64,000 nucleotides of DNA from a virus, in IMG/VR virus record IMGVR_UViG_3300043570_004127, positions 32,001-96,000 of that record; one strand, 5' to 3'. This document shows positions 2,436 through 64,000 of the stretch, piece by piece (position 1 is the stretch's first letter; every line of letters starts with the position of its first letter). The translations under genes and the position numbers were made by a program. Under the pieces are notes generated by a model. The model was given only the letters and a program-made list of their open reading frames with translations. It did no database searches and was not told the origin of the DNA.

Positions 2436-3551
2436 CGCGTCTTGTTCTTGTTGGATTGTGTAGGCGCGTGTTCCAGGCCCAATCGGGTTAACCGAAGTGA
2501 TATTGATTTCATGGATAAGAAGATTACGTATCAACCAATGCAACGGATATGACCGTGGGTCTTTGTTGTGTTTCTTTCGAAACTCGGCACAGTATGCGCG
2601 CGCGCGAGTTTGCAAGCCTGGAGTAGCCATATTCTCGTCAACGCAGCGCTTAACACCACTCCAACCGTCTGCAGCGTATTGCATAATGCGTTTCTCTAGG
2701 TCGAAGTCTGTCCATAGCCGGCGTTGTGCGTCAATATGCGGGAAGCATTCGTATAAACGGTCGTAGAACTCAGGCTCTGTTGCCACAACATCACCAAGAC
2801 GGCGAATAGCGACAGCATGTAACGGTATGCCGACACGAGTGTTGCTACCCGTGAGAGCTGCTAGGTCGTAATACTCGCAGTACTCAGCTCCATGCTCTTC
2901 GGATATGAACTTAAGAACATCGTCAGTTTCCCAGTCGTAAATAACCTTGGCAAAGCGCAACGGAATGTTCTTTTTCATGCGATAGGGAATGACGATGTAG
3001 TTCTCGTGAAGTTTTTGCACACAAGAACGGTAGCGAATCATCGACTCATTAGCCCGAACACCCGTAATGAATGCAACCTTGCCCTTTTTGCCTTGCATAG
3101 TGTAGTAATCGACGGATTCCGGTATTGACTTGGATGGGTCAAGACCGAAGTGCTCTGCACGTATTGCCCACGGAGGCATCGGACGAACAAGACGACCTTG
3201 TTCTTCTCGAAACTTTGACCATAGCAAGCAGTATTCACGACGACCAAGTACCCACACTTCTGCTCCATACGGGAGGCAATACCATTCCATGTCAACCCAG
3301 TCGTAGTTGCGTACCTTCTCCACAAACTCGACTACGGAAGGGCTAACCATCTCTTCATCACGAAAGATTACTTTCACAGGACCGAGACCACGCTCTTCAT
3401 GTATCTCTTTTGCGAGATATAGAACTGCGGTTGAATCTTTCCCGCCAGAGAATTGCACGCACACGGTGTCAAACGTGTCATAGACGTGACGCATTCGTTC
3501 ACGAGCCGCATCTACGCAATCAATGTCCAGAAATAAACGTTGCCGTGTCAT
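2409..3551 (-). CDS. PAPS reductase-family protein (DUF3440/YbdN/IbrA-like)
   Basis: FSGGKDS PP-loop, GVRANES, IYDW motifs. Confidence 0.85.
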   Translation of the reverse strand: MTRQRLFLDIDCVDAARERMRHVYDTFDTVCVQFSGGKDSTAVLYLAKEIHEERGLGPVKVIFRDEEMVSPSVVEFVEKVRNYDWVDMEWYCLPYGAEVWVLGRREYCLLWSKFREEQGRLVRPMPPWAIRAEHFGLDPSKSIPESVDYYTMQGKKGKVAFITGVRANESMIRYRSCVQKLHENYIVIPYRMKKNIPLRFAKVIYDWETDDVLKFISEEHGAEYCEYYDLAALTGSNTRVGIPLHAVAIRRLGDVVATEPEFYDRLYECFPHIDAQRRLWTDFDLEKRIMQYAADGWSGVKRCVDENMATPGLQTRARAYCAEFRKKHNKDPRSYPLHWLIRNLLIHEINITSVNPIGPGTRAYTIQQEQDALDLDNLGL

Positions 3552-3586: not shown

Positions 3587-3838
3587 ATGACAAAAAATCA
3601 TTACGAAGTCTACGAATTAGATATAAAAGACGACGGGCTCGATGTGTGGCAGGCCATCTGGGATAAGAAGGAAATAATTACCATCTACAGAGGAACTAAA
3701 TCAAATGAACAAATCTGCGTCACCAGAATGCAGACTATAAACGTAACCAGGGGAAAGAAAAAGTTTACCGTAGATGAGTTTTTAAAACTTGTTGACGAAT
3801 TCATCTCGGAAATCGTAAGTTTAGAAAAGAAGAATTAA
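3587..3838 (+). CDS. hypothetical protein
   Basis: 83-aa ORF with TAGGAT-N6-ATG start. Confidence 0.6.
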   Translation: MTKNHYEVYELDIKDDGLDVWQAIWDKKEIITIYRGTKSNEQICVTRMQTINVTRGKKKFTVDEFLKLVDEFISEIVSLEKKN

Positions 3839-27506: not shown

Positions 27507-28868
27507 TTAAGCAGCTGGCTCGTTGTCGAAGTCAATCGTTACGAATGCTTCTGGACGCTTCACTGCAAGTGCAAGGCGCTGTTCTGCAAGAACAACGATT
27601 GCGTTGCGGACGAAGAAGTCTGAGTGCTGTTCGCTGATTCGAATCGAAGCTTGCTCACGGTCGTACAACTGTGCACCAGTACCGAAGGCACCGATTAGAG
27701 CTGTGCCGATTGGCATTGCTGGGGTATCTACTACCGGCATTCTCCAAACACGTGGCTCGCCACCTACTGCAACCGAAACTGCAATGAGGTACTGACCATT
27801 TGCGTCCTTGGTCAATTCGATGTCTTCCCAGTCTTGTGGGTGCAACACGACGCCAGTTGGCTCATAGTAAGCCAAGAATGCGAGGGTTGCTGCACGACGA
27901 ATTGAGTCTGCCTTGGTGTCAGGAACTGGTGTTGCTGCTCCCGATGACCATGCATAGCTCTGGATACCTGGTGTGTTCAAGACGCCCAAGAGGTTCTCGC
28001 CGGCACCGTCGCCATTGAGGATTTGGTTGTCTTCCAACAAACGAAGACCGTACATCAGTTCGTTGTCGATGATTGAGCGTAGTTGTGGCTCATCAGCAAG
28101 AACGTTTCTGTGTGCAGCTTCCCAGTGTGCCAACGTACGAACTGGAGCCTGCTCACCAACGAATGCGAAGGATGATTGTGGCTTCAAACCGAAGTTGGAA
28201 TTGTTGCCGAGACGCTCTGCAACTGTTGATGCACTGTTGGTGCCACCGCCGGCTACCGAAGTAAAGCCTAGTTGACGGAAGTACTCAATTACTGCAGCAG
28301 TTGTTGTGCGACTTGGGAACAAGTCACGAACACGCTTGGTGCGCATTGGTGGGGTCACCATTGGGTCACGCTGGATGCTACCGAATTGAGCATCTGCACC
28401 GCGGCCTAGTGTGCCAGTTGGTGATGCAGTGTAAATATCCTTAACCTGGATACCTGTCAACGAAGCCTTAACCTGCCATGGAGCTGGCATGTTTGCGCCG
28501 TTGCGACCACCCTGAAGTGCCTTGAATTCATTTGATTCGACAAACATCTGACCAATGGACTTGTAGCCCATGTCGTGTGCTTTTTCGGTGAGGTCACGCT
28601 CTGCTGCTGCGTAGGCGACAGCAACTGAATTGCCATCTTCCTTTTCGCCCCAGCTTGCGACGCTATTCATCTGCTCAAGACCCTCAATGAGGCTCTTGAT
28701 TTCACGAATGTCAGACATGTTCTTGTCGAACGCTGTCTTTTGGTCCGCGGATACAACGACAGTGCCGTCTTCTACCTTGAACGAGTCTGCGATGGTCTTG
28801 TTTTCAGCCATCTTGGTACGGAGTGCGCCTTGAAGTTCGCGTACTCTTGATTCATCATGCGATGCCAT
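27507..28868 (-). CDS. major capsid protein, HK97 fold
   Basis: coiled-coil delta domain, EDNQILNGDG, DANGQY, F.RN....AE.R.......PEAF; AAGGAG RBS; followed by a terminator. Confidence 0.93.
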   Translation of the reverse strand: MASHDESRVRELQGALRTKMAENKTIADSFKVEDGTVVVSADQKTAFDKNMSDIREIKSLIEGLEQMNSVASWGEKEDGNSVAVAYAAAERDLTEKAHDMGYKSIGQMFVESNEFKALQGGRNGANMPAPWQVKASLTGIQVKDIYTASPTGTLGRGADAQFGSIQRDPMVTPPMRTKRVRDLFPSRTTTAAVIEYFRQLGFTSVAGGGTNSASTVAERLGNNSNFGLKPQSSFAFVGEQAPVRTLAHWEAAHRNVLADEPQLRSIIDNELMYGLRLLEDNQILNGDGAGENLLGVLNTPGIQSYAWSSGAATPVPDTKADSIRRAATLAFLAYYEPTGVVLHPQDWEDIELTKDANGQYLIAVSVAVGGEPRVWRMPVVDTPAMPIGTALIGAFGTGAQLYDREQASIRISEQHSDFFVRNAIVVLAEQRLALAVKRPEAFVTIDFDNEPAA

Positions 28869-29013: not shown

Positions 29014-29208
29014 TTATGAAGGAAAGACTAAACCTTCACCATTTTCTAAAATCTGCTTGACTTCTGCTTTGATGATACCAAAGTCGTGAATATTTTCTTC
29101 TGTTTCGTTGACGCCTACTTCTTTTAATGAAAATCCGCGCATTGCAGCAATGTACATTGCTTCAACATCTCCTATTTGTTCCGCTTTTAAAACAACTTCA
29201 TCGTTCAT
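29014..29208 (-). CDS. small acidic protein coupled to the giant ORF
   Basis: 64 aa; start overlaps the 3' end of the 3687-aa ORF. Confidence 0.55.
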   Translation of the reverse strand: MNDEVVLKAEQIGDVEAMYIAAMRGFSLKEVGVNETEENIHDFGIIKAEVKQILENGEGLVFPS

Positions 29209-32200
29209 GTATTACAACCCCGTTCAGCATTGACGCTTTTATTGTTTTCCCGACTATTCGAGCGAGTCTATTCCCGGAAACACTATCAAACATCGCTGTC
29301 TTCTCTTCGGTATCTCCACCCTCTGGGATGTATCCATATTGGTCAACGAAATCCATCGCTACATCAATAACTGAAAACGGAAGATTTAGAGCATTTGCAA
29401 TTTCTACTACAGTTTCTCCAGCTTGCAGCATTTCGGTCAACTGTTGACGCTTGCTTGGTGACAGATTTTCAAGCTTCTCTATTGAACGAATCTGGCCTAA
29501 TGGCTGGGTATGTTCTGGTTTCTGCTTTGCTGTCCATATCACTAAGTCCATTGGAACGCGTTCCGTCATGTCGTCAAGTGAAACGCCGGGTTTTTTAGCT
29601 ACGAAATCCCTAAGGACAGCCTTGTCTGGTGTGCTTAGATTTCTGAACTGGTTCATCGCCTGACTGTCGCTTAGTGATTCCTGTAGTCGTGGTTTTGAAC
29701 CTGGAAAGAGGGTCGGCTGGTATGCGGGTTGCGGCGCATACACAACGTCTGGAAGATTCGGGTCAATTTCATTCATTGTAATTGCGTCAAAAACCTGATG
29801 CTTTGATATTTTTTGTTTTTTTGCAATTTCTTCTACTGTTACGCCAGATTCATATTCTGCAATTATCTTACCCGCAAAAGAATTCTTTGAAACTTTTTTG
29901 GCATTCATTTTAAAATCTGGTTTTGACATGTCGACGGCTTGACCACTGTCATCGAACTTTCCGTGAGCGTATGCAAGTGAGTCAAGAATTTCAAGTTCTC
30001 CACCCTTTATTTTTCTTGCAAGAAGTTTCGGTTCTTGACCAGACGTAACGTTTGTATCCCAAAGATAGAATTCATCTGCGGACTTAGCAACGGTAGGCAT
30101 TATGTCGTAGTTTCGTCTATTTACCGCAGGGATGATATGACGCGGAAGTCTTCGAGGGTCACTTTTTTCCCGTTCATCTATTCTGCCTACGAGAACGTTT
30201 TCTGGAGAAACGTTGTAGTGAGCAATAATCTCATAACCCTTATCTCGTGCAGCTTTTAATGTTCCAAATCCGGAATTGAATTGACCAGTCGAGTCATAAA
30301 CAACATCGTGTCCATTCTCGAGACCAACTTTAAGTGCAACATCTGCCATTATTCTGGATTCTTCGTGTGATGCGTCTCCCCAGTTGGGGTTTCCGTTTCT
30401 ATGCATCTCGATAGCTTCGGGAATAAGAGTTTTCATTTCGTCTGCATCAATGTGTACTGCGGCATCAACGGAAGGTATGTCGTGTTTCCCACTCAAACGA
30501 AGAGTGGATTTACCTGAACCTGGAGGTCCACCAACTGATATGAACCTTTTTGGTTCACCATCTTTTCGTATTGCCGTAACGGCTTTCGAAAGTGCAACAG
30601 CTATCGGCTGATATAGGTCCCAGAACCTTTCTTCCTTAATCTTCGTTGTTCCGCCAAATGTCGCATCCAAGCCGACAAATGGCTCGTCTTTCTGCGCCAA
30701 GAATGTTCCTATTGTTGTCGCCGGCCTCAAACTTGTGTAGTTGCTCGGATTGTATGTCGTGAGCTTTCCTTTGAATCCAAGTCGTTTAGCTATGGAATCA
30801 TTCATCTTTGGAAGGTTTTTGGGAGTAAAAGGAACTGGGTTCGGCTTTGCTGGCTCATTTTTCGTAAATCGTTCGAAGAGACCCATGGCTCCAGTTATTT
30901 TTGGCATTCTTGACAGAACGACTTCTGATTCTCCGCGTCGCGTAAAGTAGGCGACTACGTCTTTCTTGTTTACTGTTGCTTCAGCGACTAATGGCTTTTC
31001 ATTGCCTCTTGCCAATCTACCCGAAAACCATGTCGCTTTGGCTTTGTCTGTCGTCCAGGAAAGTCCATTCTGATTTTTCCCTTTTATGTATCCACGATAA
31101 ATTTTAATCTTATCTGGGAGTGAATCTAGCTCGTCTAACTCATCTTTTTTCATCATGTTCGACTTGCCAGGACGCTTTGAAGAAAGAGCAGATTTCCACA
31201 AATCTTTGTTTTGCCAGATGTTTTCGGAATCGACCCATATGTCGGAAAGCAAAGACCAATAGTCTTTGTCGTCCATCTCGTCTTTGACATCCATAAAAGC
31301 ATCTAGTCGATATGGTCGTTCATGTAGGTATATGTACGAACTCCAATTTTTACTTTTCCGCGCTTCTCCAACTGCTTCAAGTTTCTGCCTGTATTGCTGG
31401 TTTATCATTCCTGGCATCATCGGACCAATCCACATAACTAGTGGATGGCGCACTATAGGCATCCCTATTTCATTATTGAATTCGACAAAGGATTCCAGGT
31501 CCTTATCCAGAGGTTCATTTGCGTCCCTCATTAAATCTTCGAGTGCTTTTCTTGTTGTATCGTCAGACATTCTGCCGGTTATTCCACGGCCCTTGAGGTT
31601 GATGCCAGAAAGGGCAGCATTATCAATCTCTTCATCAGTCCATCGTCGTGGTTTTGATTTAGCCGAGCGCTTCTCCCTATTTAGTTCAACAGGGGTCAAT
31701 TGTCGTACTTTCATTGAGCCAGTTATTGATTGACCTTCTGGAATACTGTTTTCAGGGAGACTTCTGACAAAACTATTAACAAAAGCTGCGCCCTCTTTGG
31801 AGTATCTCTGTTTATTAAGGTCGACCTTGTATCTGGATACGGCTTCCTTTAACAGCTCGGATGCGATTCCCGACCTTTTGCTTTTCGGGTCAATAAATAT
31901 ATTTACATTTCCCTTTTTTTCTGATGGACCACCAGGTTGTTCTGCCGGCATATTCTGTGGATAATGATTTAGAATCCCAAGAATTTTCCCGTTCTTATCT
32001 CTGTAGAGGAGTGCGTCAACCCACCAACCTTTTTTTCTGAGTTCGTCATCCTCGCCCCTGAAGTAAGAAACTCCTGACGGCCCACTCTCTGGGTATTGTG
32101 AAACTTGTGAACGGAAAGAAAGAATAGGTTCAAATATTGAAACTTTCTTATCTTTCCAGCGCTTACCCCTGTATGTTATTCGATTTTTTTTTTCCTCTGG

Positions 32201-35200
32201 TCCAGTACCATCAACAGTCATGGAGCCAGTAATGTCGTTGTCCTCATTATCGTCAAAAAACTCGCCAAATGGATTTCTGTTTACTTTACTGAGGTCACCC
32301 ATTGGTACATCTTCGGGTTCAAATTTCCATCTCGGTGGTAGCCCTTGCTGTTCACGAACGTACCAGTCTGGAACTCGTTTTCCGGTAATCGGGTCGATGT
32401 ATGAAAAGTCTTCGCCGAGTGTTGTGGTCACAGGAAATGGGTTTCCTGAATCATCAACATTGGTTCGCTTGGGTGTGCGAGTAGCGTTATTCTGTTGGCG
32501 TCGCGGCCGGCGTTCGGTAGGTCTAACGGAGTCGTAGAACAGGCGTTCTTCTGGATTGCTCAGGACAGAGTATGCCTCTGAAATCTTTTTGAATAAGGCT
32601 TCGTTGTTTTTATCTCCAGGATTTAGGTCTGGGTGCGTTTCTCTCGCTGCTTTTCTGTATGCGGTTCGCAGTTCTTTGTCGTTCGCATCTTCTGCAATAC
32701 CAAGAATATCGTAGTAATCGTTATCTTTGTACTGTTTTCTCGGGAACCCCATAGCTCCAGTGATACCACTAGAGTTAAATCGGTTCATTGTTTCGGCTTG
32801 GTCAATTTTTACCTCGACAACGTCTTTGCCGTGCAAATAGGCCATGTCTCTTATCGACACACCATCCAAGCGCATATCAATAAATTGCTTTTGGGAATCG
32901 TTAAGATTTGAGCCGTTGAGAATTATGGCCCTTCTAAGTAATTGCGTGTTTGCATTGTCGGTCTTCTCGAGTGCATCTGAGTACTTCTTGAAGCTATCCC
33001 TTGCCTGGGCTGGAGTTATGTCTTCGGCCTTGGCAATTGTTTCTATGTCCAAACCGTCATGCTTGACCGCCACGTAGACCCTTTTTGGAAGACCGCGCTG
33101 CGAATTTATTGGGGCATTTATTAAATCTTTTTCTTTAACAGCCATTTTTCTTTCGAAAAGTTCCCTATTTTGCCCGCGCAGTTTTGCGAGTATTAACGAT
33201 TCAGATGTAATCGCGTCAAGAACATCCGTGCCTTCAATTTCTGCAATTTTATCGATAGGCATCCCGTCGAAGCGCATTTTCATGTGTCTGTTTTCGGCCG
33301 GAGTGAGGTTTTTCTTACTGTTCTGAAAAGCTTTCTCATATGTAGAAAGAATCTCAGTCTTGTTGTTTTCGATGAAATCAAGGTGATTCTGAACCGCGTC
33401 ATTTACTTCGCTAGCTTTTATCCCAAGCGTTTTCGCTATTTCGGAGTTGGAAATTCTTTCGTACGTCTTGCTGTAGAAGGCTTCGAGGTTGGTTTTTCTT
33501 AATTCTTCCCCCTCTTTGGACATTTCAATAAATTTAGAGAATGGAACTTTGTCAACACCCATGGAACCCGTGATATTTCCTGCTGATAGTGCGGACTTGT
33601 ATCTATTCCGTGCGACAGCCTCTGTTAGTCCTAGCTCTTTGGCTACCTCTTTAAATGTCTTACCGTTTCCAATGAGTTCAACGACCCTTGCTGACTCATT
33701 GTTCCGCTTTGCTTTTTGCTTGTCGGCATGTATCGAGCTTAAACCAATTGCTCTTTGGACTTTAATTACTTCGTTCGTGCTTATGTCTAGTTCGTTGGCT
33801 ATGTCGGAAGCAGAATGTCCACCAACAAATGACCTCTGAGCGATGAACTTTATGTTTTCCGCTGACTGAACTGGGGCAGCAGGCTTTTCGTCACGAAGTT
33901 TTGCAAAAGTTACGCCGTCCATGCGTGCCTTGTAAATTACATCTTTTACTTGCTGTGGGTTGAAAGAGTGAATTCCGCCATCGGCACGTGTGAAGTTGTC
34001 GGTCTCCCATTTTGCATTAATCGAGCGAGCTATAAGAACTGGATTTAGTTCTGTTCTTCGGAGCGCAATTACGTCTTTCATAATTTTGTCGCGCTCGTCT
34101 TTACTCAAATTGTCGGAAGACCAACTGGTTATCGGGCCACGGAAATATCTTCCTGCCATTGCCCCAGTAATTCCGCCATTGCGTCTTTCTCTGGCCCATT
34201 TCATTATCCGTTTGTTATGCAATTCAGCATCAGGGCCAAACGCTGTATAGCCGCTGTCTGCATTTTCTGTTGGTCGCGGAAACAGTTTCAATTTTTGGCC
34301 GGTCTCAATCGAGATTCTTTCCCTGGCCGCATTAACACCAGAGATGATTCGTTGTTGTCTCCTGCGCGAAATAGCGTTTAAGTTAACGAATCTGTCGTGT
34401 AATGCTTCATCGTCTGTGCCTGCAAGAGCAAGAGCAACCCATGCTGCATGGCCAAATGCTAGCGGCCTGGTGCCACCCGATATTCTTTCAAGTGAATACC
34501 ATGCCGCTGTTGATGCGTCGTCTCCGGCACGAACATCCGTATCTGGTGATACTTCAAGTACAACTCCGGATATTCTGGCGCCGTTAACGAATCTTGGGTC
34601 CCAGTCACGGGCCTCGATTTCACCGAGATGTTCCATTCTTATTACATCTTTATCCGTGACATTAACTTCTTCTAGGGCTTCTCGTTGTGCTGTGTCTCGC
34701 AATTCTTCGTCATCGTTTCTCATTCCACCAGGAAGCGACAATGACCTTGTTTGAGCGGTATGTGGACCAAACAATCTTTCTATTAGGAGTATTTCACGCT
34801 CGCCTGTTTCTGGATTTGTTCTAAGGATTACAGCATCGCCAGCCTCTTGCATTGGCTTGGAGTCATTACCTAGCACCCATGGAGTGATGGAGTCTGCAAC
34901 ATCGAGTTCAAAATTCCTATCCCCTGTGTACTCGCCCAATCTTTGACCCAGGCGCGCGGCGGTTCGCATCGTTTGGTCGGTAGGGGCGTATGGTAATTCA
35001 CCGCGTTTTTCTCTTTGATAAAGATTCGCAATGTGCAATGCGTCTTCATGTTTGGGGTGACCCTGTGGGAAAAGCTTGTGTCCCAATTCATTTACAACAT
35101 ACCAATTTCCATCAGGAAATTCTTCTGTGTAAAGCTGCATTGCTCCGGATATTCCGCCACCATATATGCGTTTTGCATTATCGGATAGTCTCGTTGGTTT

Positions 35201-40372: not shown

Positions 40373-42682
40373 TTATTCATTGTTTAAAAGTTTTTCAAGT
40401 TCTTCCTGGTGCAGCTGTTTTATTGCTTCAATATCAATATTTATGAATTGCGACCTAGCGAAGTCTGCTAAGTCGAATTTCTCCGGATTACGTCCTTCGT
40501 CAATGTCAATCTGATAAGCAATTTGGAGCGTATCCCGGATGTCCCTGGCTTGAGAACTGGTGACCGAATCGATGGTGTTTTTTTCAAGGAATTTGGGGTT
40601 TTGAATTTTCTTTTTATTAAGGAATGATTCTCTTTCATTTTTCAAAAGTTTTGCAACCATCGCACTAGTTAATTGCTCTGAATCAAGCAGGGTGGCATCT
40701 CGTAGTTCTTCTGTTAAATGTTTTAGTGTTGTTGCTCGAGATATCTTTTCATCCACCTTTGAGTCTACTGTTTCCAGAATTTTATCTACTACGTATTCAG
40801 GTATTTTTGAATAATCGTCGCTTTCTCGAACCACCGACGTAGATTTCGGGATTGGACTAAGTCCAAAAGATGACCTTAGGTCGTCTTCTATTTGTTTTAT
40901 TCTCCTGTCAAACTCCGAGATTAATTTGCCTTCATCGTTCTTAAAGGCGAGACGAACACCAACCTCCTGCCCTTTACTGTTTTTTGCTGTGACATAAGGG
41001 TTATTCAACCATGAGTTATATCTCTCCCAATACTGGGATGGATTTATTTCTTTGGAAAATGTACCGAGAAAGTCGCGCACTTGTTGGGCTGCTGCAGTTT
41101 GGGGGTTTGCTGGGGTTTCGGAATGTGTAAAAACAACACCGAATGGGTCGTATAGAGCCCCATGGTCACTTCCTGATTTTCCCCACAGGAGCCCCAATTG
41201 TTCTATTTGTTTAGAAACTTTTTTTAATTGCGGAGCATACCCAGTCCCATATCTAGCATACTCTATCCCCCCAAATTTTGCGAATCCAATTTCAAAATTT
41301 CGTTTGCTATGTGCGTTTATGTACTTCAATCTGGTTGAGTCATCTTTCCACCAGAAAGTTAAACCACTAGATGGGTCACGTTTTCCTTGCGTAAAATATT
41401 TGAAATTGTCAATATCTTTTTGCGCCCATTTTTTAATAAATGGTAATTCTTTATGTGTGTCGCGTTGAGGTCCACCGCCAACGGCTTCCCTAAATGCTTT
41501 TGGACTTATTCCAAGTCCGGCCATCGCACCGGTGATTCCACCATTTTTCAGGTGTGACGAACGGGTGTGATAGTTATCTGGATTGTTCCAAAAAACATCA
41601 TTTCCTATTCTGTATCCTGCATCGCGAAGTGATTGAGCCATTTCTCTCGTTGAATTAAACTCGTCATTTAGTCCATGCAGCTGCATTGAGCGAGCGATTT
41701 TGAATAGTCGTGCTCCGTTTATGTTGTTTGTTGGGTCTTGACCGCCATCGAAATCCGGGTTAGCAATCCAGTCATGTTTTTTTATATCCCAGGCCATCGA
41801 CTGTAAGTAGAGCCCAGCTGCCGTCCTTAGTGATTCCAGGTATTCTGGATTGTTCTTTAAATCCTCTAATGGCTTTCCGCTGATGTCGTACCTAAAACCA
41901 TATCCGGCGCTTCCTCTGTCTATTGGGAATGTCCACCAATCAAAGTGCTGCTTGTGAAACTCTGCCCAATTTCTACTGTCGGCCCATGTTTTGAATTTCC
42001 TAGTTTGATTTGCCTGTTCCGATACAAGGCTATCAATTCCGCCAAATGGGGTGTTGTTTGTTTTCGCAACGTACTGTTTTGGTTTAGGTTTTTTGAACCT
42101 ATCCATCATCCCCATTTCGCCAGTTATTGAGTCACCTGGCGTTGGGTCTGGCATCTCTCTGGAGGTGCCATCAAAAATTAGGCCATTACTATTTGCATCA
42201 TTGCGTGTTAATGGGTTTTGGTCGCCGGTTATTTTTGCATTATTAAGAATTCGTCTTCCGATTCTGGGAAGAGCTTTTCCGGTTATGGCATCCCTATTTA
42301 TCCCGCCGTTTGTTATTGGAGGAATAATCCCACCACCAAAAGCCGTAACCGTACTCCCAGAAGGAGTCGGAGGGGGATTTAATATATCAGTATCAAGTCT
42401 TTCTCCAGAAAACGCTGCTCGACGTCGTTTTTTCTTTTTTACTCGTTTTGGAATAACTTCTTCAGTGTTTAGCTCCTTACCAGAACCGCCACCCGTCGAA
42501 CCGCTGTATGAATAGTGCGCACTGACTAATCCGACGCCATCGACAGATACTGGAGCATCAATCAATCGCTCTTTTAACTTCTCCCAGCCAGAAACGTTCT
42601 CTCCACGCAGCTTTCGTTTTTTTCGATTCTTGCGTTTTGGTGAAGATATCTCCGGCGTAATTTGTTTACTTTTATTATCCAT
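40373..42682 (-). CDS. 769-aa multidomain protein with OGFr/DUF1810-like segment
   Basis: long ORF; HFDWWTFP segment lies between ITGEM and ITGAM. Confidence 0.7.
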   Translation of the reverse strand: MDNKSKQITPEISSPKRKNRKKRKLRGENVSGWEKLKERLIDAPVSVDGVGLVSAHYSYSGSTGGGSGKELNTEEVIPKRVKKKKRRRAAFSGERLDTDILNPPPTPSGSTVTAFGGGIIPPITNGGINRDAITGKALPRIGRRILNNAKITGDQNPLTRNDANSNGLIFDGTSREMPDPTPGDSITGEMGMMDRFKKPKPKQYVAKTNNTPFGGIDSLVSEQANQTRKFKTWADSRNWAEFHKQHFDWWTFPIDRGSAGYGFRYDISGKPLEDLKNNPEYLESLRTAAGLYLQSMAWDIKKHDWIANPDFDGGQDPTNNINGARLFKIARSMQLHGLNDEFNSTREMAQSLRDAGYRIGNDVFWNNPDNYHTRSSHLKNGGITGAMAGLGISPKAFREAVGGGPQRDTHKELPFIKKWAQKDIDNFKYFTQGKRDPSSGLTFWWKDDSTRLKYINAHSKRNFEIGFAKFGGIEYARYGTGYAPQLKKVSKQIEQLGLLWGKSGSDHGALYDPFGVVFTHSETPANPQTAAAQQVRDFLGTFSKEINPSQYWERYNSWLNNPYVTAKNSKGQEVGVRLAFKNDEGKLISEFDRRIKQIEDDLRSSFGLSPIPKSTSVVRESDDYSKIPEYVVDKILETVDSKVDEKISRATTLKHLTEELRDATLLDSEQLTSAMVAKLLKNERESFLNKKKIQNPKFLEKNTIDSVTSSQARDIRDTLQIAYQIDIDEGRNPEKFDLADFARSQFINIDIEAIKQLHQEELEKLLNNE

Positions 42683-52548: not shown

Positions 52549-55500
52549 CTATTTATCTTTCATCGTTGAGAGAATCGCATAGAGCTTGACCATTGGAGGT
52601 ATTTCATCAAGACTAACAGATTCCTGTTTTGCAGATTTAATTGACGAGCCAAGTCTCCCAAATATCGGTTTTACAATCTTGGAGGCAACATCTCTGATTT
52701 TTTCTGTCTCCTCAAAGTCGTACAGCCCACCATCAGCACCAGCTCTAAATTGTGGAACGATATCAAGGTCTTTATTCTGTCCGAAAAGCCACCATGCGCT
52801 AAATGCTTCAGCAAATTTTTCAGCGTTATTCGTAGCGCCGTACTTCGTTACCGATGATAGCTGACCAAAATCCTTTTCTAGCGATGTACTCCAACTAGAA
52901 GCATTATTTGACTTTCTTGATGCTAATGTATCGAGCACATGACCCATTTCGTGCACCATTACACCGTAAGCAAGACGTTTCGCCATCTCTTCTTTTTTTG
53001 CTTTGATTTTTAATTCATTTTCTGGCGTACGAGTTATTTTGTTGTTGTTTTCAAATTGCAAGAAGATGTCATGAACGCCATGGTATTTTTTCCCAATTTG
53101 TGCTTTTAGATTTGATAATGCCTGTCCGCGCAATTTTGTATCCATTACAAATGTATCTGCTATTTCATCAGACGCATTGGAAATTCGCCCAACCGGTATT
53201 TCCATTTCAATTATTCCAGCATCATCGTCCATGGAGACAAAACCAAGGAGCCCTTCTTCATCGTTTGTGGTTAAGTCTCTTTTGACTCTAAAACGCATAT
53301 CAGAAGCAGCTCTTCCGCCAAATAAATCTTCTGCATCAAAATTTGACAAAATGTCATCTAGGGCTTGAAGCGATGCAAAATGCGCCGTTTTGTAGGAATC
53401 GCCCTCATCGAATATGTCGTCAATTTCCATTTCTAAATCGTATTTTTTTTTAAAATATTTGGTCTGCTCTGCGGCTGTTCTGCCAAATTTTGCTTCATGC
53501 TCCTTTGTAGATGCGACCTTAACCACACCAGACTTGTCGCGGCCATAAGGGAGTGTCTTGGGTCCTTTTTCAACTACCTCATCAAGCGTTCTACCTACCG
53601 ACATTTCTCCCGTTAGCGAGCTCTCAACCACGGTATTGGGTTTTTTTTTAGTGCTCTGCGAAAGACTCATCGCGCCAGTTATTCCTGAGGCGATGTTGTC
53701 TTTATCCCCACCACCCTTTGCTTCACGCATGTCACTGATTATGTCTTCCATCTGCTTTTCAATTTTGTTTCTTATTGCTTCTTTTGCAGTGGTTTTTTTA
53801 GATGCTTTTTTATCGAAGGCTTTAGGGTCGAAAACGTTAAGTCCATATTTGTTAGTTATTGAAAGCTTTATGCCTTTTTTGTCCATTGACTTTCGCATGG
53901 CTTCTGCGGCTTCTAGTCTGAGGTATTTATCAACGTCCTGCTTCAGGTCGAACTCGGCTGCTCCAAAGCGGTTCATGCCTTTTTGAATTTTGTCAGGTAT
54001 CACAAAGTCCCTTGGTGAGGAGGAAAGCATGTCTCTAATGATTTTTCGTTCTTCTTCGGTTGGATTGATTCTGTCCATTGCGGCATCGGAGATAATCTTT
54101 TCCTTAAGACCATTTAGGAAAGATTCGCTTTCCTTGATGTATGCGTCTTTGCCCATTGCCGAATTTGTTGCTGGAGAATCAGGGTGACCGTCAATGAAGT
54201 TTTTTGGAATCGAATCGAATGGTATTTTTATTTCGTCAATATCGTCGGAGTTAAATCCCCCAGCAATAAACGCCTCACGTGGCTCCCACGAGCGACCTGG
54301 GCTTGTCGCGTACTTTTCTTTTCTATATGCGTCGTGGTTATTTTTAAAGCTATTGTATAGGTGCTCAATTATGTTTTCTGCACGGTTGTCAGTCTTGAAA
54401 GCAGCATCAACATGAGCCCTAGCAATCACTTCATTGTCTGAGCTGTTCATGCCGACTGGCTCAATATGGTTATTGAACAACTCGCCGTTTCCGTACGCTG
54501 TTCTGTCAGCAACACCAGGGTTTAGAATAACTTCAGCGTTTCCAAAATTCCAGTCATTACCCCTAGTTCGCTTGGAGTGGGGAAAATCTACAAGGTTGGG
54601 GGAGTATCTTTCCGGATTCTCTTTACCACTGTTTTTGAGGAATTTATTAATGTCGCTCTGTTCTCTTTGAAGTTCATCCATGTGTAGAACAAAACCCGAT
54701 GCCGGACGTAACTCAACTGGGGTGTCTGGGTGTATGCCAATATCGGCTTCGTATTTTGCAAGTATCTTGTCGAGACCTACAATCTCGTTTCTTTGATGGC
54801 TGTTCTTGAACCCGTTTTCAATAAGGTCTTTCAAGAATCTTCCAGGAACGTGCGTGCGAGGCTGTTTATCTAAACCCTCGTGGAAGTCAAGAATTGAAAA
54901 CTCCAGTTCCTTCTTTAGCTCTTCGATTGGTGTTTCGTTTAGGTATCTGTGGAAATCTGGGTTAAGGCCATTGAGAGCATTCTTAACATCAAATATGTTC
55001 TTCTTCCAGTCGTCGTCATTTGGGCCGTCTGGTGGAGGGGAGCCAGGTGGGGCAGCGGCAGCAGCCTGTGGTCCCTCTGAATTCGGAATGAAGTCAGTCT
55101 TAATCACGTCCTTCAACGCAGTAAGAACATTAATTCGTTCTTTGTTTCTGGCTTCCTTTGTCTCACTGATTAGCGTTGGTCCGAGCATCGTGTCGGCAGG
55201 GTTCAAATCTTTTATATAGCGCACACTTGTGTCTCCGCCAAAGTTTCCGCCAGGCCCATTGATTGAGCGCTTGATTTCTGCGGTCTTCCGATTTGATTTT
55301 CTAGTTGAAGATATTTTCATCGATGTTCGCATCGCGCCAGTTACACCGCTGCTACTTGATGATTGATAAAGAGGAGCGGATAGAACCTTTTCTGGACTTG
55401 GGTCTATGCCTTCTTTTTTCAGCTTGACCGCTCTTGCCATAAGCGCATGTGCTGCTAGGTTGTAGTTTTCGGGTTGACGAGCACTGCGAAGTCGTGACGA

Positions 55501-58500
55501 AACACCGAATATTGGCTTATTAACCCCGACTAATTGTCTTTCATCTGATGGCCCTAGATTGCTGACAATAGTGTCTTCGGTGTCTCCCACGACAAGATAG
55601 GCCGAACCACGAAGGTTATCTTCCCATCTTATGTACGAATCTTGGTCTTTGACATCTATTGCAAAGGGGCCAGCTCCCCGTGCGGTATTTTGTGCTTCCG
55701 TGTAATACTTCGCTACGTCCTCTGGGATATCTGCAGCGGCATTTCTACCGTAGTATCCATCTGTAGTAACACCGCTTGATGCTGGATATGCGCTCAAAAA
55801 TCCAAAGTCTGGGCTTTCGTTAATTCTCGCTGCGAGTTTGCTGGCTCGAGTTTGTTGTGCCTGAAGTTCCGTGAGCCTTCTGTTCCCATCTTCAATCAAG
55901 GGCCTTATTCCGTCTCGCAGTGGAAGTGCTGTTATATCTAGTTCTTCGCCCTGTTTGGCGCCATACTGGGAGGAAATACCGAGCAGTGAATTGATTGAAT
56001 CTGCTTCTTCCCTGTTTTGTGGTGTGAACTTTGTTTGTCCTGCATTCAGGGCAGACATTATTGTTTCATATGTTGCTAATTTTTTTGCATCTTGTCGGAA
56101 TTTTTCATTAAAATTACCAATTTGCATTCTGTTTAGGGCGCCAGTATCGCCAGGTGAACCAGCTCCCATCCCAGCAGTAGATGTTCGTGAAGGATTAAGA
56201 ACTCCGCCATCCAGTTGCGCCTTGCCTACGTGAATCACAGCTTCTTGATTACCGTCGAGTTTGAACGCTTCAATATCGCCATCGTTTCTTCGTTTTTGGA
56301 GTTCTTTACCCTCCTCGACGAGTCTTCTGTATTCTTCCTCAGGCACGTCTTCTATGTCGAGAATTCCTTGCTCTACTCTTTCCTTCTTGGTGCGCGCTAA
56401 GAATTCCTGAAGAACGACTTCTTTTTTAGAATCAGAAATTTTCTTTTCTAATTCTTGTTTGAACTTGGCGAGCCCCTCTTTCTCAACTTCTTCTTTTGTT
56501 AGGTTGCGTGGAGTTACGTCAGCGTCAAATCCGTCTAGGGATGTCTTGTCTTTACCGCGAGATAGGACAACTCCAAACTCCCCACCTCTCCACTCACCAG
56601 TCGCCTCAAGTGCAGCCATGGCTTTCTCTAAACTATCGACCCTATTCCTGGCTTTTTCGCTTCGTTTATCTTGCTTATCAGTTGATTCGGAAACTATATT
56701 TCTAAAGTTTTGAGGAGCCAGGGAAACATCCATCGAGCCAGTTACGCCGCCATTCCGCTCAAGTACTTGCTGTTCAAAATCAACGATTGCTTTTTCGAAA
56801 TCATTCTGAGCTTCAGTAACTCTTTCCTTTTGCGACTTCATATCGAGGACGGTGGTTGGAAGGTTCTTTTCTATGGCTTTATCAACCAACGCTGCCATTA
56901 CCATTCCTGCCGCCTCAGAGTCTGCGTCGGCAGTGTGATGCTTGGAACCCAAATCAACGCCAAGATATGCCGTAATATCTGCTAGTCCATTTGATGCTTT
57001 TCTTGTTTCTGGAATCACAGTGCCGTCATCCAGTATTTTTTCTTTTACGAGCTTGGATGGGCCTTCTGGGTTTTCAGGTGTCCAGCGTGGCAGTGTGTGC
57101 TCTGATATGTCTTTTGTATCTAGGTAACCAGAAGGCCTCCACTGAATCCCAAGTTTTTCTAGAGTCGCATCAAGTACATCTTTGTCAAACGGTGCATATT
57201 GAACTCCAAATATTGCATTTTCGCCGGCAAAATCCGCAAGCATCTGATGGGCCTTTAGCATGCTTTCCTGGGTGTCCAAATACGCATCGGTCAGTACATT
57301 GCCATCTTTGTCTTTAAGGTATTTCGCAGACCATTCACCTAATGGTTGGTCTGGTTTCATGAATACATTAAGGCGGTCAATTACTTTTCCACCCTTCATT
57401 CGTACGGCACCTATTTGGACCGGAGAACCCTTGCCTATAGTGCGACCGTCGCTGTCGTTTTCTATTCCAGTTGTTTCATAGTCAAAGAAGATTATTTCTG
57501 TTTCGTCATATATTTTTTTAAACTCTTCCCAGGTTTTTGCGCTTCCAAATATTTTTTGAGCATCGCCGAGAAATGAACCATACGTAGGTTCGCGCGGGTA
57601 GCGCGGTTTGTCTTGCTCGACAGACATTGCACCAGTAATCCCACTTCGCAGACGAGCTGCGCTGAGTGGCTGCCATTGCTTTTTAGGTTTTTTGTTTTTA
57701 TTTCTAGCTTTTCTTTCGTCTTGTTTTACCCACCCCTGAACCTGTTGTGCATGCAGGCTGGTTCGGCGCTGGCCACCACCCATGTCCATCGCCCCAGTTA
57801 GATTCCATGTTCCAGGTCGAACACCAAAGGTCCCAGACCCTGAATCGTTGAGTCTTCGTGTCACTTCTGCGGAGGTCATCGGCGTTCCAGGAATTCCTAT
57901 TCTTGCCGTTCGTGAAGGCCCGGTACCTGAAGCCGCGACTGCATCAGAGAATTCTTGAACATAATTGGCGTTTCTCGTACTCTGTCTAACCGGTCCCCTA
58001 CCACCTGGTCTTGGTGACCTGAGATTAAGCGGGTATCTTTGCGGCGAGAGCATTCTGGCCTGGCTGTTAGTTTCGCCATAGAGTCTTCTAGCTGCGTAAT
58101 ACTCTGCTCTTGTCTCAATAGGGTTAGAAGCAGCATATTCCCCACCAGCAAATTGAGCCATAAGCATTAGGTCTTCAGCTGTATCGGTAATGTTGTTTAC
58201 TACCGCTTCAGTAAATGCGTCGTAAAACTCAACGAGGTCTTTTTGTAGGTCTGCAGAGTTAAAGTTTCCGCGTCCTCCCATGTACTGTCTAGTCTTGAGA
58301 TTTTGAGCGGCATCCATTACGAGCTGGATGCTCGGACTATTCATTGGATTCCGCATGTTGGTGAAATCTATTTCCCATCCACCGTTCTCTTTTCCAGGAC
58401 GCCAAGCTGGTGCTCCACCAGTAGTGGCACTGCCGGCAAAGTATGTAGGGTTTGACGGGTATCGAGCCATTCTGTTTACGTCGAATCCAAGAGCCTGCAA

Positions 58501-59961
58501 TGCTGTAGAGAAGTGCGCAAGGTGTCCAAATTCGTGAGTGGCCGTATAGTGCATGTCGCCCTCGACGGAATCATGTATTCCGCCACTGCGTGCATCGCCG
58601 TTATGAAAACCTAACGAGCTCTGGAACAGAGCTGCAGGGTTTATTCTCATAATGACGTGAACTCCGCCCTGTCCGGCATTCCGTCCAGCCACTAGTTTTT
58701 TCCCTGCAGCACTTACAAGTCTCCCGTTGGAATCTATAGCTGGTCCGAAATGGTCCAGTGAAACTTCAAATGCACTCCCCATGTTGTAATCAACCTGGAA
58801 CTGAGTTACTAATTTTGCATGGTCCGGATTCGCAATTGCCTCAACAATTGTTGCCTCCCAGAACGCCCGAATTCCCCTTTTTGCCTCACCCTTTTGCTCC
58901 CATCTCAGATTCGATGGAATCGCATTTTGGAAATATGCTTTAAATTCATTCGGCTCAACATTGGGGAACATTTGTGTCATTACCCTCATGAAGGTTGCTT
59001 CATCGGTAATGTCTCCGATGTCGTCACCGTTCGGAAGTTTTATCAATCCGGAACGTATCATCTCGTGATTTGTCATAGCAAGCATCGTTGACCGTTTACC
59101 ACGTTGGGTTTTTTCTTTCCGGCCCAAAAGATAAGGTTCACTTGGTCCAGACCTTCTGGATGGGTCATACCTCTGACCGACACCTCCAGACATTGCTCCA
59201 ACAATTCGCCCACCAACAGCCATTCGGCTAGATACTTCGTCGTACCCCATGTCCAAAAAATCTTGCTGGGTTAGGTTGTTCATGTCTCTTGCTGCTTGGA
59301 ATCCACTTGGGGTTCTTCCACCAACTTGTGACGCATCCGCAATTGCACTTCCTGCACGTCTTGCTATTCGTCCTGCGCTTCCGGCGGCTGTGCGTGGAGA
59401 GACAATAAAACAGTTAGACATTCTTTGGTCAGTAAACTGGTTTGCTGCCGGACTTCCTTCAGGACAGCGAAGTTTGTTCTTGTCATCCACCCATGGCTTT
59501 AAACCAAACTTCCCCATCATGGAGCGTGCAAGAAGGGTATCTATTTCGTCCCTAAGTTTCGGACCAAGAGACTTTGAGTCAAGATGTAAATCTGGGTGTT
59601 TAAATTTAACTTTCGGCTTTTTTGTTTGATATTCTTTTTGCAAATTGTAATAATTTGTATCTGTATGCAATGGGTTGCCAAACTTACACAAATGCATAGT
59701 CATCCCTGGTGGGATTAGGGGAAGTGGGTCACTTTGCTTCCATGTTTTAAGAAATGCGTCGTATGGATTCTTAAAAGGATTTTCTTCTTCTTTTGATTTT
59801 TCGTCTTTTGGTTTAGACTCTTTTGGCTTGGCTTCTTTTATGTCAAGGGTCGGACCAGTAATTAATTTTGCGTCCTTGTTTTTGACAGCTCTCGCTATCG
59901 CCCTGTTGATGAAATCGTTTTGTCTATAGCCCACTGAAGGTCTCCCAGCGCGAAGCCACAC
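52549..59961 (-). CDS. 2470-aa multidomain polyprotein (zincin, DEDDh exonuclease, DUF3626/ART-like, second zincin)
   Basis: HEFGH...ETRAE; FFDYETTG...FD...HTADAD; RPASG...RTAY...EAFIAGG; HEMGH...EKFAEAF. Confidence 0.85.
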   Translation of the reverse strand: MWLRAGRPSVGYRQNDFINRAIARAVKNKDAKLITGPTLDIKEAKPKESKPKDEKSKEEENPFKNPYDAFLKTWKQSDPLPLIPPGMTMHLCKFGNPLHTDTNYYNLQKEYQTKKPKVKFKHPDLHLDSKSLGPKLRDEIDTLLARSMMGKFGLKPWVDDKNKLRCPEGSPAANQFTDQRMSNCFIVSPRTAAGSAGRIARRAGSAIADASQVGGRTPSGFQAARDMNNLTQQDFLDMGYDEVSSRMAVGGRIVGAMSGGVGQRYDPSRRSGPSEPYLLGRKEKTQRGKRSTMLAMTNHEMIRSGLIKLPNGDDIGDITDEATFMRVMTQMFPNVEPNEFKAYFQNAIPSNLRWEQKGEAKRGIRAFWEATIVEAIANPDHAKLVTQFQVDYNMGSAFEVSLDHFGPAIDSNGRLVSAAGKKLVAGRNAGQGGVHVIMRINPAALFQSSLGFHNGDARSGGIHDSVEGDMHYTATHEFGHLAHFSTALQALGFDVNRMARYPSNPTYFAGSATTGGAPAWRPGKENGGWEIDFTNMRNPMNSPSIQLVMDAAQNLKTRQYMGGRGNFNSADLQKDLVEFYDAFTEAVVNNITDTAEDLMLMAQFAGGEYAASNPIETRAEYYAARRLYGETNSQARMLSPQRYPLNLRSPRPGGRGPVRQSTRNANYVQEFSDAVAASGTGPSRTARIGIPGTPMTSAEVTRRLNDSGSGTFGVRPGTWNLTGAMDMGGGQRRTSLHAQQVQGWVKQDERKARNKNKKPKKQWQPLSAARLRSGITGAMSVEQDKPRYPREPTYGSFLGDAQKIFGSAKTWEEFKKIYDETEIIFFDYETTGIENDSDGRTIGKGSPVQIGAVRMKGGKVIDRLNVFMKPDQPLGEWSAKYLKDKDGNVLTDAYLDTQESMLKAHQMLADFAGENAIFGVQYAPFDKDVLDATLEKLGIQWRPSGYLDTKDISEHTLPRWTPENPEGPSKLVKEKILDDGTVIPETRKASNGLADITAYLGVDLGSKHHTADADSEAAGMVMAALVDKAIEKNLPTTVLDMKSQKERVTEAQNDFEKAIVDFEQQVLERNGGVTGSMDVSLAPQNFRNIVSESTDKQDKRSEKARNRVDSLEKAMAALEATGEWRGGEFGVVLSRGKDKTSLDGFDADVTPRNLTKEEVEKEGLAKFKQELEKKISDSKKEVVLQEFLARTKKERVEQGILDIEDVPEEEYRRLVEEGKELQKRRNDGDIEAFKLDGNQEAVIHVGKAQLDGGVLNPSRTSTAGMGAGSPGDTGALNRMQIGNFNEKFRQDAKKLATYETIMSALNAGQTKFTPQNREEADSINSLLGISSQYGAKQGEELDITALPLRDGIRPLIEDGNRRLTELQAQQTRASKLAARINESPDFGFLSAYPASSGVTTDGYYGRNAAADIPEDVAKYYTEAQNTARGAGPFAIDVKDQDSYIRWEDNLRGSAYLVVGDTEDTIVSNLGPSDERQLVGVNKPIFGVSSRLRSARQPENYNLAAHALMARAVKLKKEGIDPSPEKVLSAPLYQSSSSSGVTGAMRTSMKISSTRKSNRKTAEIKRSINGPGGNFGGDTSVRYIKDLNPADTMLGPTLISETKEARNKERINVLTALKDVIKTDFIPNSEGPQAAAAAPPGSPPPDGPNDDDWKKNIFDVKNALNGLNPDFHRYLNETPIEELKKELEFSILDFHEGLDKQPRTHVPGRFLKDLIENGFKNSHQRNEIVGLDKILAKYEADIGIHPDTPVELRPASGFVLHMDELQREQSDINKFLKNSGKENPERYSPNLVDFPHSKRTRGNDWNFGNAEVILNPGVADRTAYGNGELFNNHIEPVGMNSSDNEVIARAHVDAAFKTDNRAENIIEHLYNSFKNNHDAYRKEKYATSPGRSWEPREAFIAGGFNSDDIDEIKIPFDSIPKNFIDGHPDSPATNSAMGKDAYIKESESFLNGLKEKIISDAAMDRINPTEEERKIIRDMLSSSPRDFVIPDKIQKGMNRFGAAEFDLKQDVDKYLRLEAAEAMRKSMDKKGIKLSITNKYGLNVFDPKAFDKKASKKTTAKEAIRNKIEKQMEDIISDMREAKGGGDKDNIASGITGAMSLSQSTKKKPNTVVESSLTGEMSVGRTLDEVVEKGPKTLPYGRDKSGVVKVASTKEHEAKFGRTAAEQTKYFKKKYDLEMEIDDIFDEGDSYKTAHFASLQALDDILSNFDAEDLFGGRAASDMRFRVKRDLTTNDEEGLLGFVSMDDDAGIIEMEIPVGRISNASDEIADTFVMDTKLRGQALSNLKAQIGKKYHGVHDIFLQFENNNKITRTPENELKIKAKKEEMAKRLAYGVMVHEMGHVLDTLASRKSNNASSWSTSLEKDFGQLSSVTKYGATNNAEKFAEAFSAWWLFGQNKDLDIVPQFRAGADGGLYDFEETEKIRDVASKIVKPIFGRLGSSIKSAKQESVSLDEIPPMVKLYAILSTMKDK

Positions 59962-63999: not shown

Positions 64000-64000
64000 C

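Follow-up and report, generated by a model that had tools for sequence, protein, structure and literature searches.

A giant phage head-module protein built of tag-joined effector cassettes, probably cleaved and carried in the virion

The stretch of viral DNA analysed here (the window; 64,000 nucleotides) covers bases 32001-96000 of IMG/VR virus record IMGVR_UViG_3300043570_004127 (169,327 bp, rated complete by CheckV), and all positions are those of the window unless marked as genome positions. Its subject is a giant open reading frame (ORF) for a protein of 3,687 residues, which lies next to the major capsid protein gene. The region 29198-35152, encoding the C-terminal 1,980 residues of this protein, comprises eight cassettes bordered by a short recurring peptide, referred to below as the tag. 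The protein is probably a phage polyvalent protein of the head module, a chain of tag-joined cassettes that is predicted to be cut and carried in the virion. A sequence-only reading of this DNA had described a string of effector domains within one ORF beside the capsid gene; the frame is intact, the capsid gene does adjoin it and all seven module assignments survive, with differing strengths.

29198..40261, minus strand: giant ORF P0001, 3,687 residues, polyvalent protein or polyprotein of the head module; single uninterrupted open frame
27507..28868, minus strand: major capsid protein gene, directly downstream of the giant ORF; phrog_10 match at 3e-60

The tag and its setting in the head module

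On the minus strand the genes run in the order portal (genome ~96495-98615), S78 protease-scaffold ORF, several giant ORFs, the 3,687-residue ORF and the capsid gene. The giant ORF therefore falls within the head-morphogenesis block, with the S78 protease-scaffold gene on one side and the capsid gene on the other. The capsid protein shares 49% identity with its counterparts in Cantare (a Brevibacterium phage) and GMA6, both actinobacterial myoviruses; a DNA search of the region against INPHARED phages produced zero matches, and BLASTP detected no similarity between the giant protein and gp11, gp12 or the head protease of Cantare. A protease concealed inside the 3,687-residue ORF was rejected for the latter reason and because the S78 protease forms the N-terminus of a separate 830-residue ORF.

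The pattern I[TS]GxM occurs ten times in the giant protein, compared with 0.04 occurrences expected from its composition. The copies are encoded at the following positions.

35138..35152, minus strand: tag ISGAM, residue 1704, N-terminal border of the Nudix cassette
38255-38269, 35657-35671, 34157-34171, 33560-33574, 32750-32764, 32219-32233, 31712-31726, 31568-31582 and 30884-30898, minus strand: the other nine tags
31571..31714, minus strand: basic segment of 48 residues (2850-2897) flanked by tags; matches none found

Cuts placed before the methionine of each tag reproduce to the base the segment borders drawn in the sequence-only reading, and they also yield the 48-residue piece, which that reading had missed. 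The Ile, Ser/Thr and Gly codons vary synonymously between copies, indicating selection on the peptide and not on the DNA. Internal translation starts were considered as an explanation of the invariant methionine and rejected, since the three preceding residues are conserved as amino acids with varying codons; the lack of a consistent Shine-Dalgarno spacing at the tags also disfavours them.

A relaxed form of the tag, [IVL][TSV]GxM, is found 32 times genome-wide in ORFs of at least 100 residues, with about four occurrences expected. Five proteins account for 24 of these 32: the 3,687-residue ORF (10), a 2,470-residue ORF (7), a 769-residue ORF (2), the protease-scaffold ORF (2) and a 1,671-residue ORF in the tape-measure position (3). 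The short motif is therefore shared by several head-module ORFs (3,687, 2,470, 769 and 830 residues), including that of the protease and scaffold itself.

40373..42682, minus strand: ORF of 769 residues upstream of the 3,687-residue ORF; two tags, ITGEM at residue 186 and ITGAM at residue 383
52549..59961, minus strand: second tag-bearing giant ORF, 2,470 residues; 7 relaxed tags, an RNase_T exonuclease and two HExxH zincin-like modules
61891..64000, continuing past the window end to 64383, minus strand: protease-scaffold ORF, 830 residues; N-terminal HK97-type S78 prohead protease and a scaffold-like tail
L093:5702-10717 (genome 110701-115716), outside the window: tape-measure-position ORF, 1,671 residues; LTGAM at residue 45, LSGAM at 588 and ITGAM at 852

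The protease-scaffold protein carries its tags at residues 346 (ISGRM) and 647 (VTGAM). In the 2,470-residue protein the RNase_T/DEDDh exonuclease match has an E value of 7e-9 and the HExxH motifs lie at residues 476 and 2337, the C-terminal one in a module that matches ATLF (the anthrax lethal-factor-type zincin domain) at 1e-7. The 769-residue ORF is without a Pfam or PHROG match; its identification as the portal was rejected, as the portal gene is located elsewhere in the genome. In the same block, a 2,108-residue ORF (43077-49403, minus strand) and a 690-residue ORF (49400-51472, minus strand) contain zero tags and have no Pfam or PHROG match. The 1,671-residue ORF is assigned as the tape measure because it is downstream of sheath and tube genes homologous to those of Cantare.

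A conserved K-S-I-G-Q-M-F sequence (K-[ST]-I-G-x-M/L-F) is present at residues 103-109 of the capsid protein, near the expected end of an HK97-type delta domain. With an offset of one residue it looks like the tag, and its methionine is lost in relatives of either tag type (the two tag types are described below).

The N-terminus of the giant protein (residues 38-237; 39500-40261, minus strand) contains DUF3721-like and DUF5872-like stretches and matches phrog_17747 and phrog_14910, to which PHROG assigns no function. This region is a candidate for steering the precursor to the prohead. An Atlas search with the 866-residue N-terminal segment 2 gave no usable match.

Relatives of the capsid protein were found in 378 IMG/VR stretches, and 80 of these loci (71-78% identical) were retained. 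In the eight closest of the 80, a giant ORF with 4-9 [IV][ST]GxM tags lies immediately upstream of the capsid gene; the pooled long ORFs of these related loci contain 59 tags, against 9 in shuffled sequence. The C-terminal half of the 3,687-residue protein has matches in 25 giant proteins of a large protein database. Seventeen of these metagenomic homologues combine Zeta, DnaJ and NUDIX domains, and all 17 carry 5-10 tags (at most 0.16 expected) at identities down to 27%.

The order and content of the cassettes differ among these relatives. The GNAT cassette precedes zeta here and follows it in two related loci (L007 and L009), and the ADP-ribosyltransferase-like (ART-like) module is present in only two of the loci compared (L005 and L006). 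In two metagenomic proteins of ~2,500 residues (P0146 and P0147), a GNAT cassette 72% identical to the present one stands beside RNase_T and helix-turn-helix (HTH) domains; comparison of the sequences indicates that this cassette has moved from one to the other of the two giant genes in related phages. Free-standing genes for ART-like and GNAT modules are also found elsewhere. By this comparison, the conserved core consists of Nudix, HTH, J-domain and zeta, and GNAT and the ART-like module are variable, so far as the sampled sequences indicate, and cassettes and tags together appear as the units of evolution. More distant relatives have P[VT]GxM in place of the tag.

The cassettes

The seven cassettes with assigned domains are, from the N-terminal side:

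34160..35140, minus strand: Nudix cassette, residues 1708-2034 (domain 1811-1939 = 34445-34831), NadM/NrtR-type ADP-ribose pyrophosphatase-like
33563..34159, minus strand: HTH cassette 1, residues 2035-2233, sigma-70 region-4-like HTH at residues 2193-2226
32753..33562, minus strand: HTH cassette 2, residues 2234-2503, several HTH-like repeats
32222..32752, minus strand: J-domain cassette, residues 2504-2680 (J-domain 2515-2577 = 32531-32719), HPD present
31715..32221, minus strand: GNAT acetyltransferase cassette, residues 2681-2849, motif A K-R-S-G-I-A
30887..31570, minus strand: ART-like cassette, residues 2898-3125, N-terminal helical domain and C-terminal probable minimal ART fold; phrog_4776
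29201..30886, minus strand: zeta-type P-loop kinase cassette, residues 3126-3687 (kinase 3236-3381 = 30119-30556), Zeta_toxin at 1.6e-18

The Nudix domain is matched by Pfam NUDIX at 4e-11 over residues 1811-1939. Its Nudix box (G-MRNDD-E-ELRDTAQ-RE-A-L-EE-V-N-V) keeps the REx2EE core of the consensus Gx5Ex7REUxEExGU intact, with only the last Gly replaced by Asn. The best PDB match of the cassette is 2fml, an Enterococcus faecalis Nudix protein (3e-7), which has the DPR and AGDDA elements in common with it, and another match, 3i9x, shares LAFxH; the match to the NCBIfam NadM-Nudix equivalog is weak (0.003). The label of an ADP-ribose pyrophosphatase-like Nudix domain with DPR, AGDDA and LAFGH elements, proposed in the sequence-only reading, thus appears reasonable.

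The two HTH cassettes had been read as an HTH and a repeated sigma-region-4-like HTH, and both calls hold at a borderline level: cassette 1 scores 24.4 bits with Sigma70_r4 (cut-off 24.1) and has HTH matches in phrog_645 and phrog_3855, cassette 2 scores 26.6 bits with Sigma70_r4_2 (cut-off 25.7), and many other HTH families score just under their own Pfam cut-offs in these cassettes. The signal is stronger in relatives, with the homologue of cassette 2 in locus L005 reaching 1e-13. A sigma-region-4-like HTH seems the best, if borderline, label for both cassettes and denotes a fold, not a sigma factor.

The J-domain is a clear assignment, with a Pfam DnaJ match at 4e-23 that spans the entire profile (1-63 of 63) and includes the HPD motif noted earlier. 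NCBIfam DnaJ models match only across their N-terminal ~70-100 positions, with 60-85 bits against cut-offs of 338-619, and the G/F region, zinc finger and C-terminal substrate-binding domains of full-length type I DnaJ were not found in the cassette. By these sequence features it is a J-domain-only protein. The description of the J-domain as an unusual member of such a string is borne out by the 2017 survey of polyvalent proteins, which makes no mention of DnaJ (0 mentions; PMC5512222). Within the present family it is a core cassette, occurring in 17 of the 25 giant homologues, and is therefore not an odd guest there.

The Pfam match of the GNAT cassette is weak (1.4e-3). The cassette has seven free-standing homologues, of which the five more distant carry precomputed GNAT Pfam matches; the acetyl-CoA-binding motif A (Q/R-x-x-G-x-G/A, here K-R-S-G-I-A) is conserved across 11 homologues of the cassette. 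A profile built from these 11 sequences retrieved only GNATs from the PDB (best 1.9e-5), and a Foldseek search with an AlphaFold2 (AF2) model of the segment (pLDDT 85) gave a top 50 consisting almost entirely of GNAT-fold acyltransferases. With the homologue profile and the predicted fold, the GNAT assignment becomes firm.

The ART-like cassette matches an unannotated PHROG family, phrog_4776, at 9e-74 and has 249 free-standing homologues of ~215-230 residues, among them gene 117 of mycobacteriophage LeBron and those of relatives in its cluster (cluster L). Neither Pfam, NCBIfam nor the PDB yielded a sequence match for the cassette (including phmmer and a profile, A1, searched against the PDB), and Pfam recognised no family in any of 33 homologues. 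Across these 33 sequences Y158-R159-G160, S171-W-T173 and R212-x-E214-x-E216 are invariant or nearly so, with R159 and S171 at least 90% conserved and E214 and E216 invariant, in the order Arg, Ser, Glu-x-Glu. In an unbiased structural search with the AF2 model (pLDDT 93) against representatives, ART-superfamily chains occupy the ten best ranks and ~26 of the top 50 (~42 of 50 in the re-ranked Foldseek list). The chains matched include KptA/Tpt1, Vis, diphtheria toxin, C3, TreX, Arr, Certhrax, iota-like, ART2.2 and others, superposed on residues ~100-228. The superpositions are modest, with Z scores of 4.4-6.2 that lie below the level excluding a common arrangement, and the assignment is based on the consistency of the match list together with the ordered R/S/ExE triad and not on any single score. 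The earlier R-S-E type call thus has the backing of the conserved triad and, as a probable match, of the predicted fold, and it finds no counterpart at the sequence level in any ART family. Among named Atlas clusters DRAT comes closest (0.86), as a lead only. The model also weakly matches (Z 3.9) chain 9k3a_B from the solved structure of a virion-internal ejection complex, the pre-ejectosome of cyanophage A4.

Membership of the last cassette in the zeta-toxin family is supported by the Pfam match and, in an alignment to zeta (1gvn), by retention of the Walker A lysine (zeta K46) in GGPPGSGKS and of the catalytic aspartate (D67) in I-D-A-D. In the same low-scoring pairwise alignment (E 0.36), the equivalents of zeta E116, T118 and R120 are Asp, Thr and Gln. 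We take these three to be the residues that contact UDP-GlcNAc, as reportedly described by Mutschler et al. in 2011. A phmmer search of the cassette against the PDB returned nothing significant. The zeta-like kinase of the sequence-only reading therefore stands as a family assignment, and its UDP-GlcNAc substrate is unsupported beyond that membership. HTH-like stretches follow the kinase (~3466-3494 and 3600-3628; HTH_23 and HTH_38), all under the Pfam gathering cut-offs.

Tag types and candidate proteases

The comparison covered 15 related genomes, of which three share the tag (the tag clade) and 12 form a sister clade without it. In the 12 sister-clade genomes the S78 protease is fused to giant ORFs of 2,100-4,740 residues, and the five examined have a different repeated tag, [FLM]SSG, in 4-20 copies in these fused ORFs.

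L109:472-12372, L110:347-14566, L111:161-11329, L112:244-10944 and L113:324-9164: S78-fused sister-clade giant ORFs, 2,947-4,740 residues; capsid protein 75-78% identical

Cassettes of these five ORFs include UvrD helicase, ArdC-N with MPTase-PolyVal, and sigma-region-4 HTH.

The change of tag extends to the tail. At a homologous N-terminal site of the tape measure, the present genome and its closest relative have L-T-G-A-M, the third tag-clade genome has L-A-G-R-M and most sister-clade genomes have L/F-S-S-G-R. Such a clade-wide change at homologous head and tail sites points to co-evolution of a protease and its sites, and the tail length ruler thus seems, from its sequence, to be processed by the same system. 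Some sister-clade tape measures (among L116-L124) have a second SSG-type copy in mid-protein, at residues 582-747, whose positional homology is not established.

From the recurrence and replacement of these peptides there is a good chance that the tags are cut. All 15 related genomes, like the present one, encode the S78 prohead protease (67-81% identity). It is ~70% identical in both clades, and the two tag types have a hydrophobic-Ser/Thr-small core in common; its fusion to the sister-clade polyproteins also speaks for it. Among proteases of the assemblin fold, T4 gp21 cuts at L/I-x-E and herpesvirus assemblin at V/L/I-x-A↓S; compared with these sites, the core of the tag resembles the assemblin-type rule of a hydrophobic P3 and a specific P1 residue. 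On sequence grounds S78 is ranked narrowly first as the putative cutter, although its claim falls somewhat short of an even chance, and the remaining probability is divided between a zincin and another protease or none.

Several points weaken the S78 assignment. The tape measure is a tail protein and hence out of the expected reach of a protease confined to the prohead; a literature search for prohead-protease cutting of tape measures found nothing relevant, and tape-measure processing is documented in phage T5, with no protease named in the part of that record consulted. The HEFGH module of the 2,470-residue protein (residues ~258-724) is found in three of three tag-clade relatives and in none of the 12 sister-clade genomes. 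Conversely, MPTase-PolyVal, together with ArdC-N, occurs in ten of the 12 [FL]SSG-using sister-clade genomes and is absent from the three tag-clade relatives and from the present genome. Tag type thus tracks zincin type, and a zincin-type metallopeptidase cassette, namely the HEFGH module, could be the cutter instead of the capsid protease. A zincin acting in the cytoplasm or in trans would account for the presence of the clade's tag on the tape measure, and processing of polyvalent proteins by zincin MPTases has been predicted by Iyer et al. (PMC5512222). The correlation, however, amounts to a single phylogenetic split, no peptidase family of Pfam matches the HEFGH module, which is marked solely by its HExxH motif, and the second HExxH module, of ATLF type, is not conserved among the tag-clade relatives. 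The core shared by both tags at a homologous site is also explained more simply by drifting specificity of one protease than by the convergence of two unrelated zincins. Cutting by the HEFGH module is accordingly regarded as rather unlikely, though a serious competitor of S78. The ATLF-like module was separately rejected as a universal cutter, having no match in the 15 related genomes at E ≤ 0.001.

Proposed function and comparison with known systems

The giant protein has at least two unrelated effector domains in one phage ORF and is encoded among virion and packaging genes, which places it in the published class of polyvalent proteins (Iyer, Burroughs, Anand, de Souza & Aravind, 2017; PMC5512222); the sequence-only reading had noted that several of its module families occur in such proteins. 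It shares with that class the joining of many unrelated effectors in one giant polypeptide in a virion-gene setting. ART, GNAT (next to ART), zeta-like kinase and Nudix domains all belong to the published repertoire, for which proteolytic release and delivery with the DNA have been predicted (PMC5512222). Head-packaged Nudix and ART domains, a MuF-fused zeta kinase and predicted proteolytic release of polyvalent-protein domains have been described (PMC5512222, PMC9503650), and motif-specific processing of ejection proteins by the prohead protease is documented for SPN3US (PMC10052503).

By analogy with these systems, the precursor would be made late, alongside the capsid proteins, and be cut by a phage protease at the [IV]-[ST]-G-x-M tags, with S78 as the first and the HEFGH zincin-like module as the second candidate. 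The pieces would be carried in the capsid, enter the next host with the DNA and act at once. Nucleotides of the ADP-ribose type would be cleared by the Nudix enzyme, host macromolecules would be the targets of modification by the ART-like and GNAT modules, the kinase would act on a nucleotide or nucleotide-sugar as a phosphate acceptor, and DNA or polymerase would be bound by the HTH arrays. Host DnaK would be engaged by the J-domain, whose clients could be host proteins or, more speculatively, co-ejected cargo, which must traverse the tail unfolded and would need refolding. A role in host takeover or anti-defence is inferred from knowledge of the families.

Several observations weigh against delivery and processing of this kind. 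The phage is uncultured and is known here from sequence alone. A domain scan of the 3,687-residue ORF recognised no MuF, portal-binding or capsid-targeting domain, so that packaging is predicted from gene position alone. To these are added the points raised above: the challenge to S78 from the tape measure and the distribution of zincins, the modest superpositions and missing sequence matches of the ART-like module, and the altered E116 and R120 positions of the kinase.

The giant protein might instead stay uncut as a single multidomain polyvalent protein, the tag being a linker or docking peptide (for example for binding of scaffold, portal or chaperone). Cleavage is so far inferred only, and some polyvalent proteins are packaged and transferred unprocessed, as is reported for the N4 virion RNA polymerase (PMC5512222). 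A five-residue tag retained at nearly every cassette border in 17 diverged homologues is nevertheless hard to square with a passive linker, as are its presence in the protease-scaffold ORF and tape measure and its clade-wide replacement by another short tag at a homologous site, and an uncut protein is considered improbable. The same low probability is given to action of the cassettes in the producing cell during late infection, with the J-domain engaging DnaK for head assembly and the Nudix enzyme and kinase reshaping metabolism. Such a role would be in keeping with the ART-like relatives that are free-standing genes outside structural modules in cluster L mycobacteriophages, such as LeBron gene 117, and with Rki of phage RB43, a free-standing phage J-domain protein (cited in PMC12619734). 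It fits poorly with the location of the giant ORF between the protease-scaffold and capsid genes among other giant tag-bearing ORFs, and with a repertoire of ART, GNAT, Nudix and zeta that is the one documented for head-packaged polyvalent proteins. A cut and virion-borne chain of cassettes is therefore preferred.

Four features set this protein apart from the published polyvalent class. The ORF lacks a MuF, ArdC-N or MPTase hub domain, it is built regularly with a five-residue tag between cassettes, an arrangement not described in the portion of the survey text searched (PMC5512222), it includes the J-domain as a core cassette, and its ART-like module belongs to an unannotated family. A literature search for a tag-punctuated phage polyprotein likewise found nothing relevant described. 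The reuse of a short motif across head proteins is reminiscent of the cargo of the prohead proteases of T4 (gp21) and of phiKZ and SPN3US (gp175/gp245), the products of which remain in the capsid and are then ejected (PMC5694885, PMC10052503). Those substrates are encoded by separate genes and are each cut once or a few times, whereas one gene here would give ~11 products; the candidate protease here belongs to the HK97 S78 type, and the tape measure bears the tag as well.

The individual modules show similar mixtures of likeness and difference. The kinase is of the P-loop family of Zeta/PezT toxins (PF06414; 1gvn) and keeps the Walker A GxxGSGKS/T and I-D-x-D aspartate, but has Asp and Gln in place of E116 and R120, forms part of a polyprotein and is followed by weak HTH-like stretches. 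The J-domain, like RB43 Rki (Perrody et al., 2012, as cited in PMC12619734), is phage-encoded with an HPD motif and would engage host DnaK; in contrast to Rki, which according to that citing paper is a free-standing gene, it is a cassette of an apparently virion-bound head-module polyprotein. The C-terminal ~90-130 residues of the ART-like cassette superpose on R-S-E ARTs (C3, Vis, iota/VIP2, T4 Alt/Mod) and KptA/Tpt1 with root-mean-square deviations of 2.6-3.6 Å, and Y-R-G, S-W-T and R-x-E-x-E follow in the expected order. It differs from them in a very short R-to-S spacing (12 residues) and in an N-terminal helical domain that is specific to the family and has further invariant residues (H42-P-L, E84-x-P-x-R and E116-N).

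Should the tags prove to be sites of cleavage, about eleven separate proteins carried in the virion would come from one gene, and the tag would provide a simple sequence rule for locating the borders of uncharacterised phage effectors in metagenomes. Candidates for early counter-defence would include the Nudix enzyme (acting on ADP-ribose-type nucleotides), the widespread free-standing phrog_4776 ART-like family, GNAT and the zeta-type kinase, and a J-domain carried in the virion would offer phages a novel means of enlisting host Hsp70 at entry. The replacement of one tag by another across a clade, with its parallel at a homologous site of the tape measure, constitutes a natural experiment in the co-evolution of protease and site. 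More tentatively, this large lineage may encode a good part of its virion cargo in a few giant genes of cassettes and cut tags, with a clade-specific tag code ([IV][ST]GxM, P[VT]GxM or [FL]SSG) that co-evolves with the protease and is also borne by the tape measure, so that cassettes, including the J-domain, could pass from gene to gene and from phage to phage without new regulatory or targeting signals.

In six more distant giant proteins of 5,300-6,300 residues (P0148-P0153), Nudix is joined either by zeta and Clp_N or by UvrD helicase, RNase_T and an ADPrib_exo_Tox ART; one of them, P0149, contains seven P[VTS]GxM tags.

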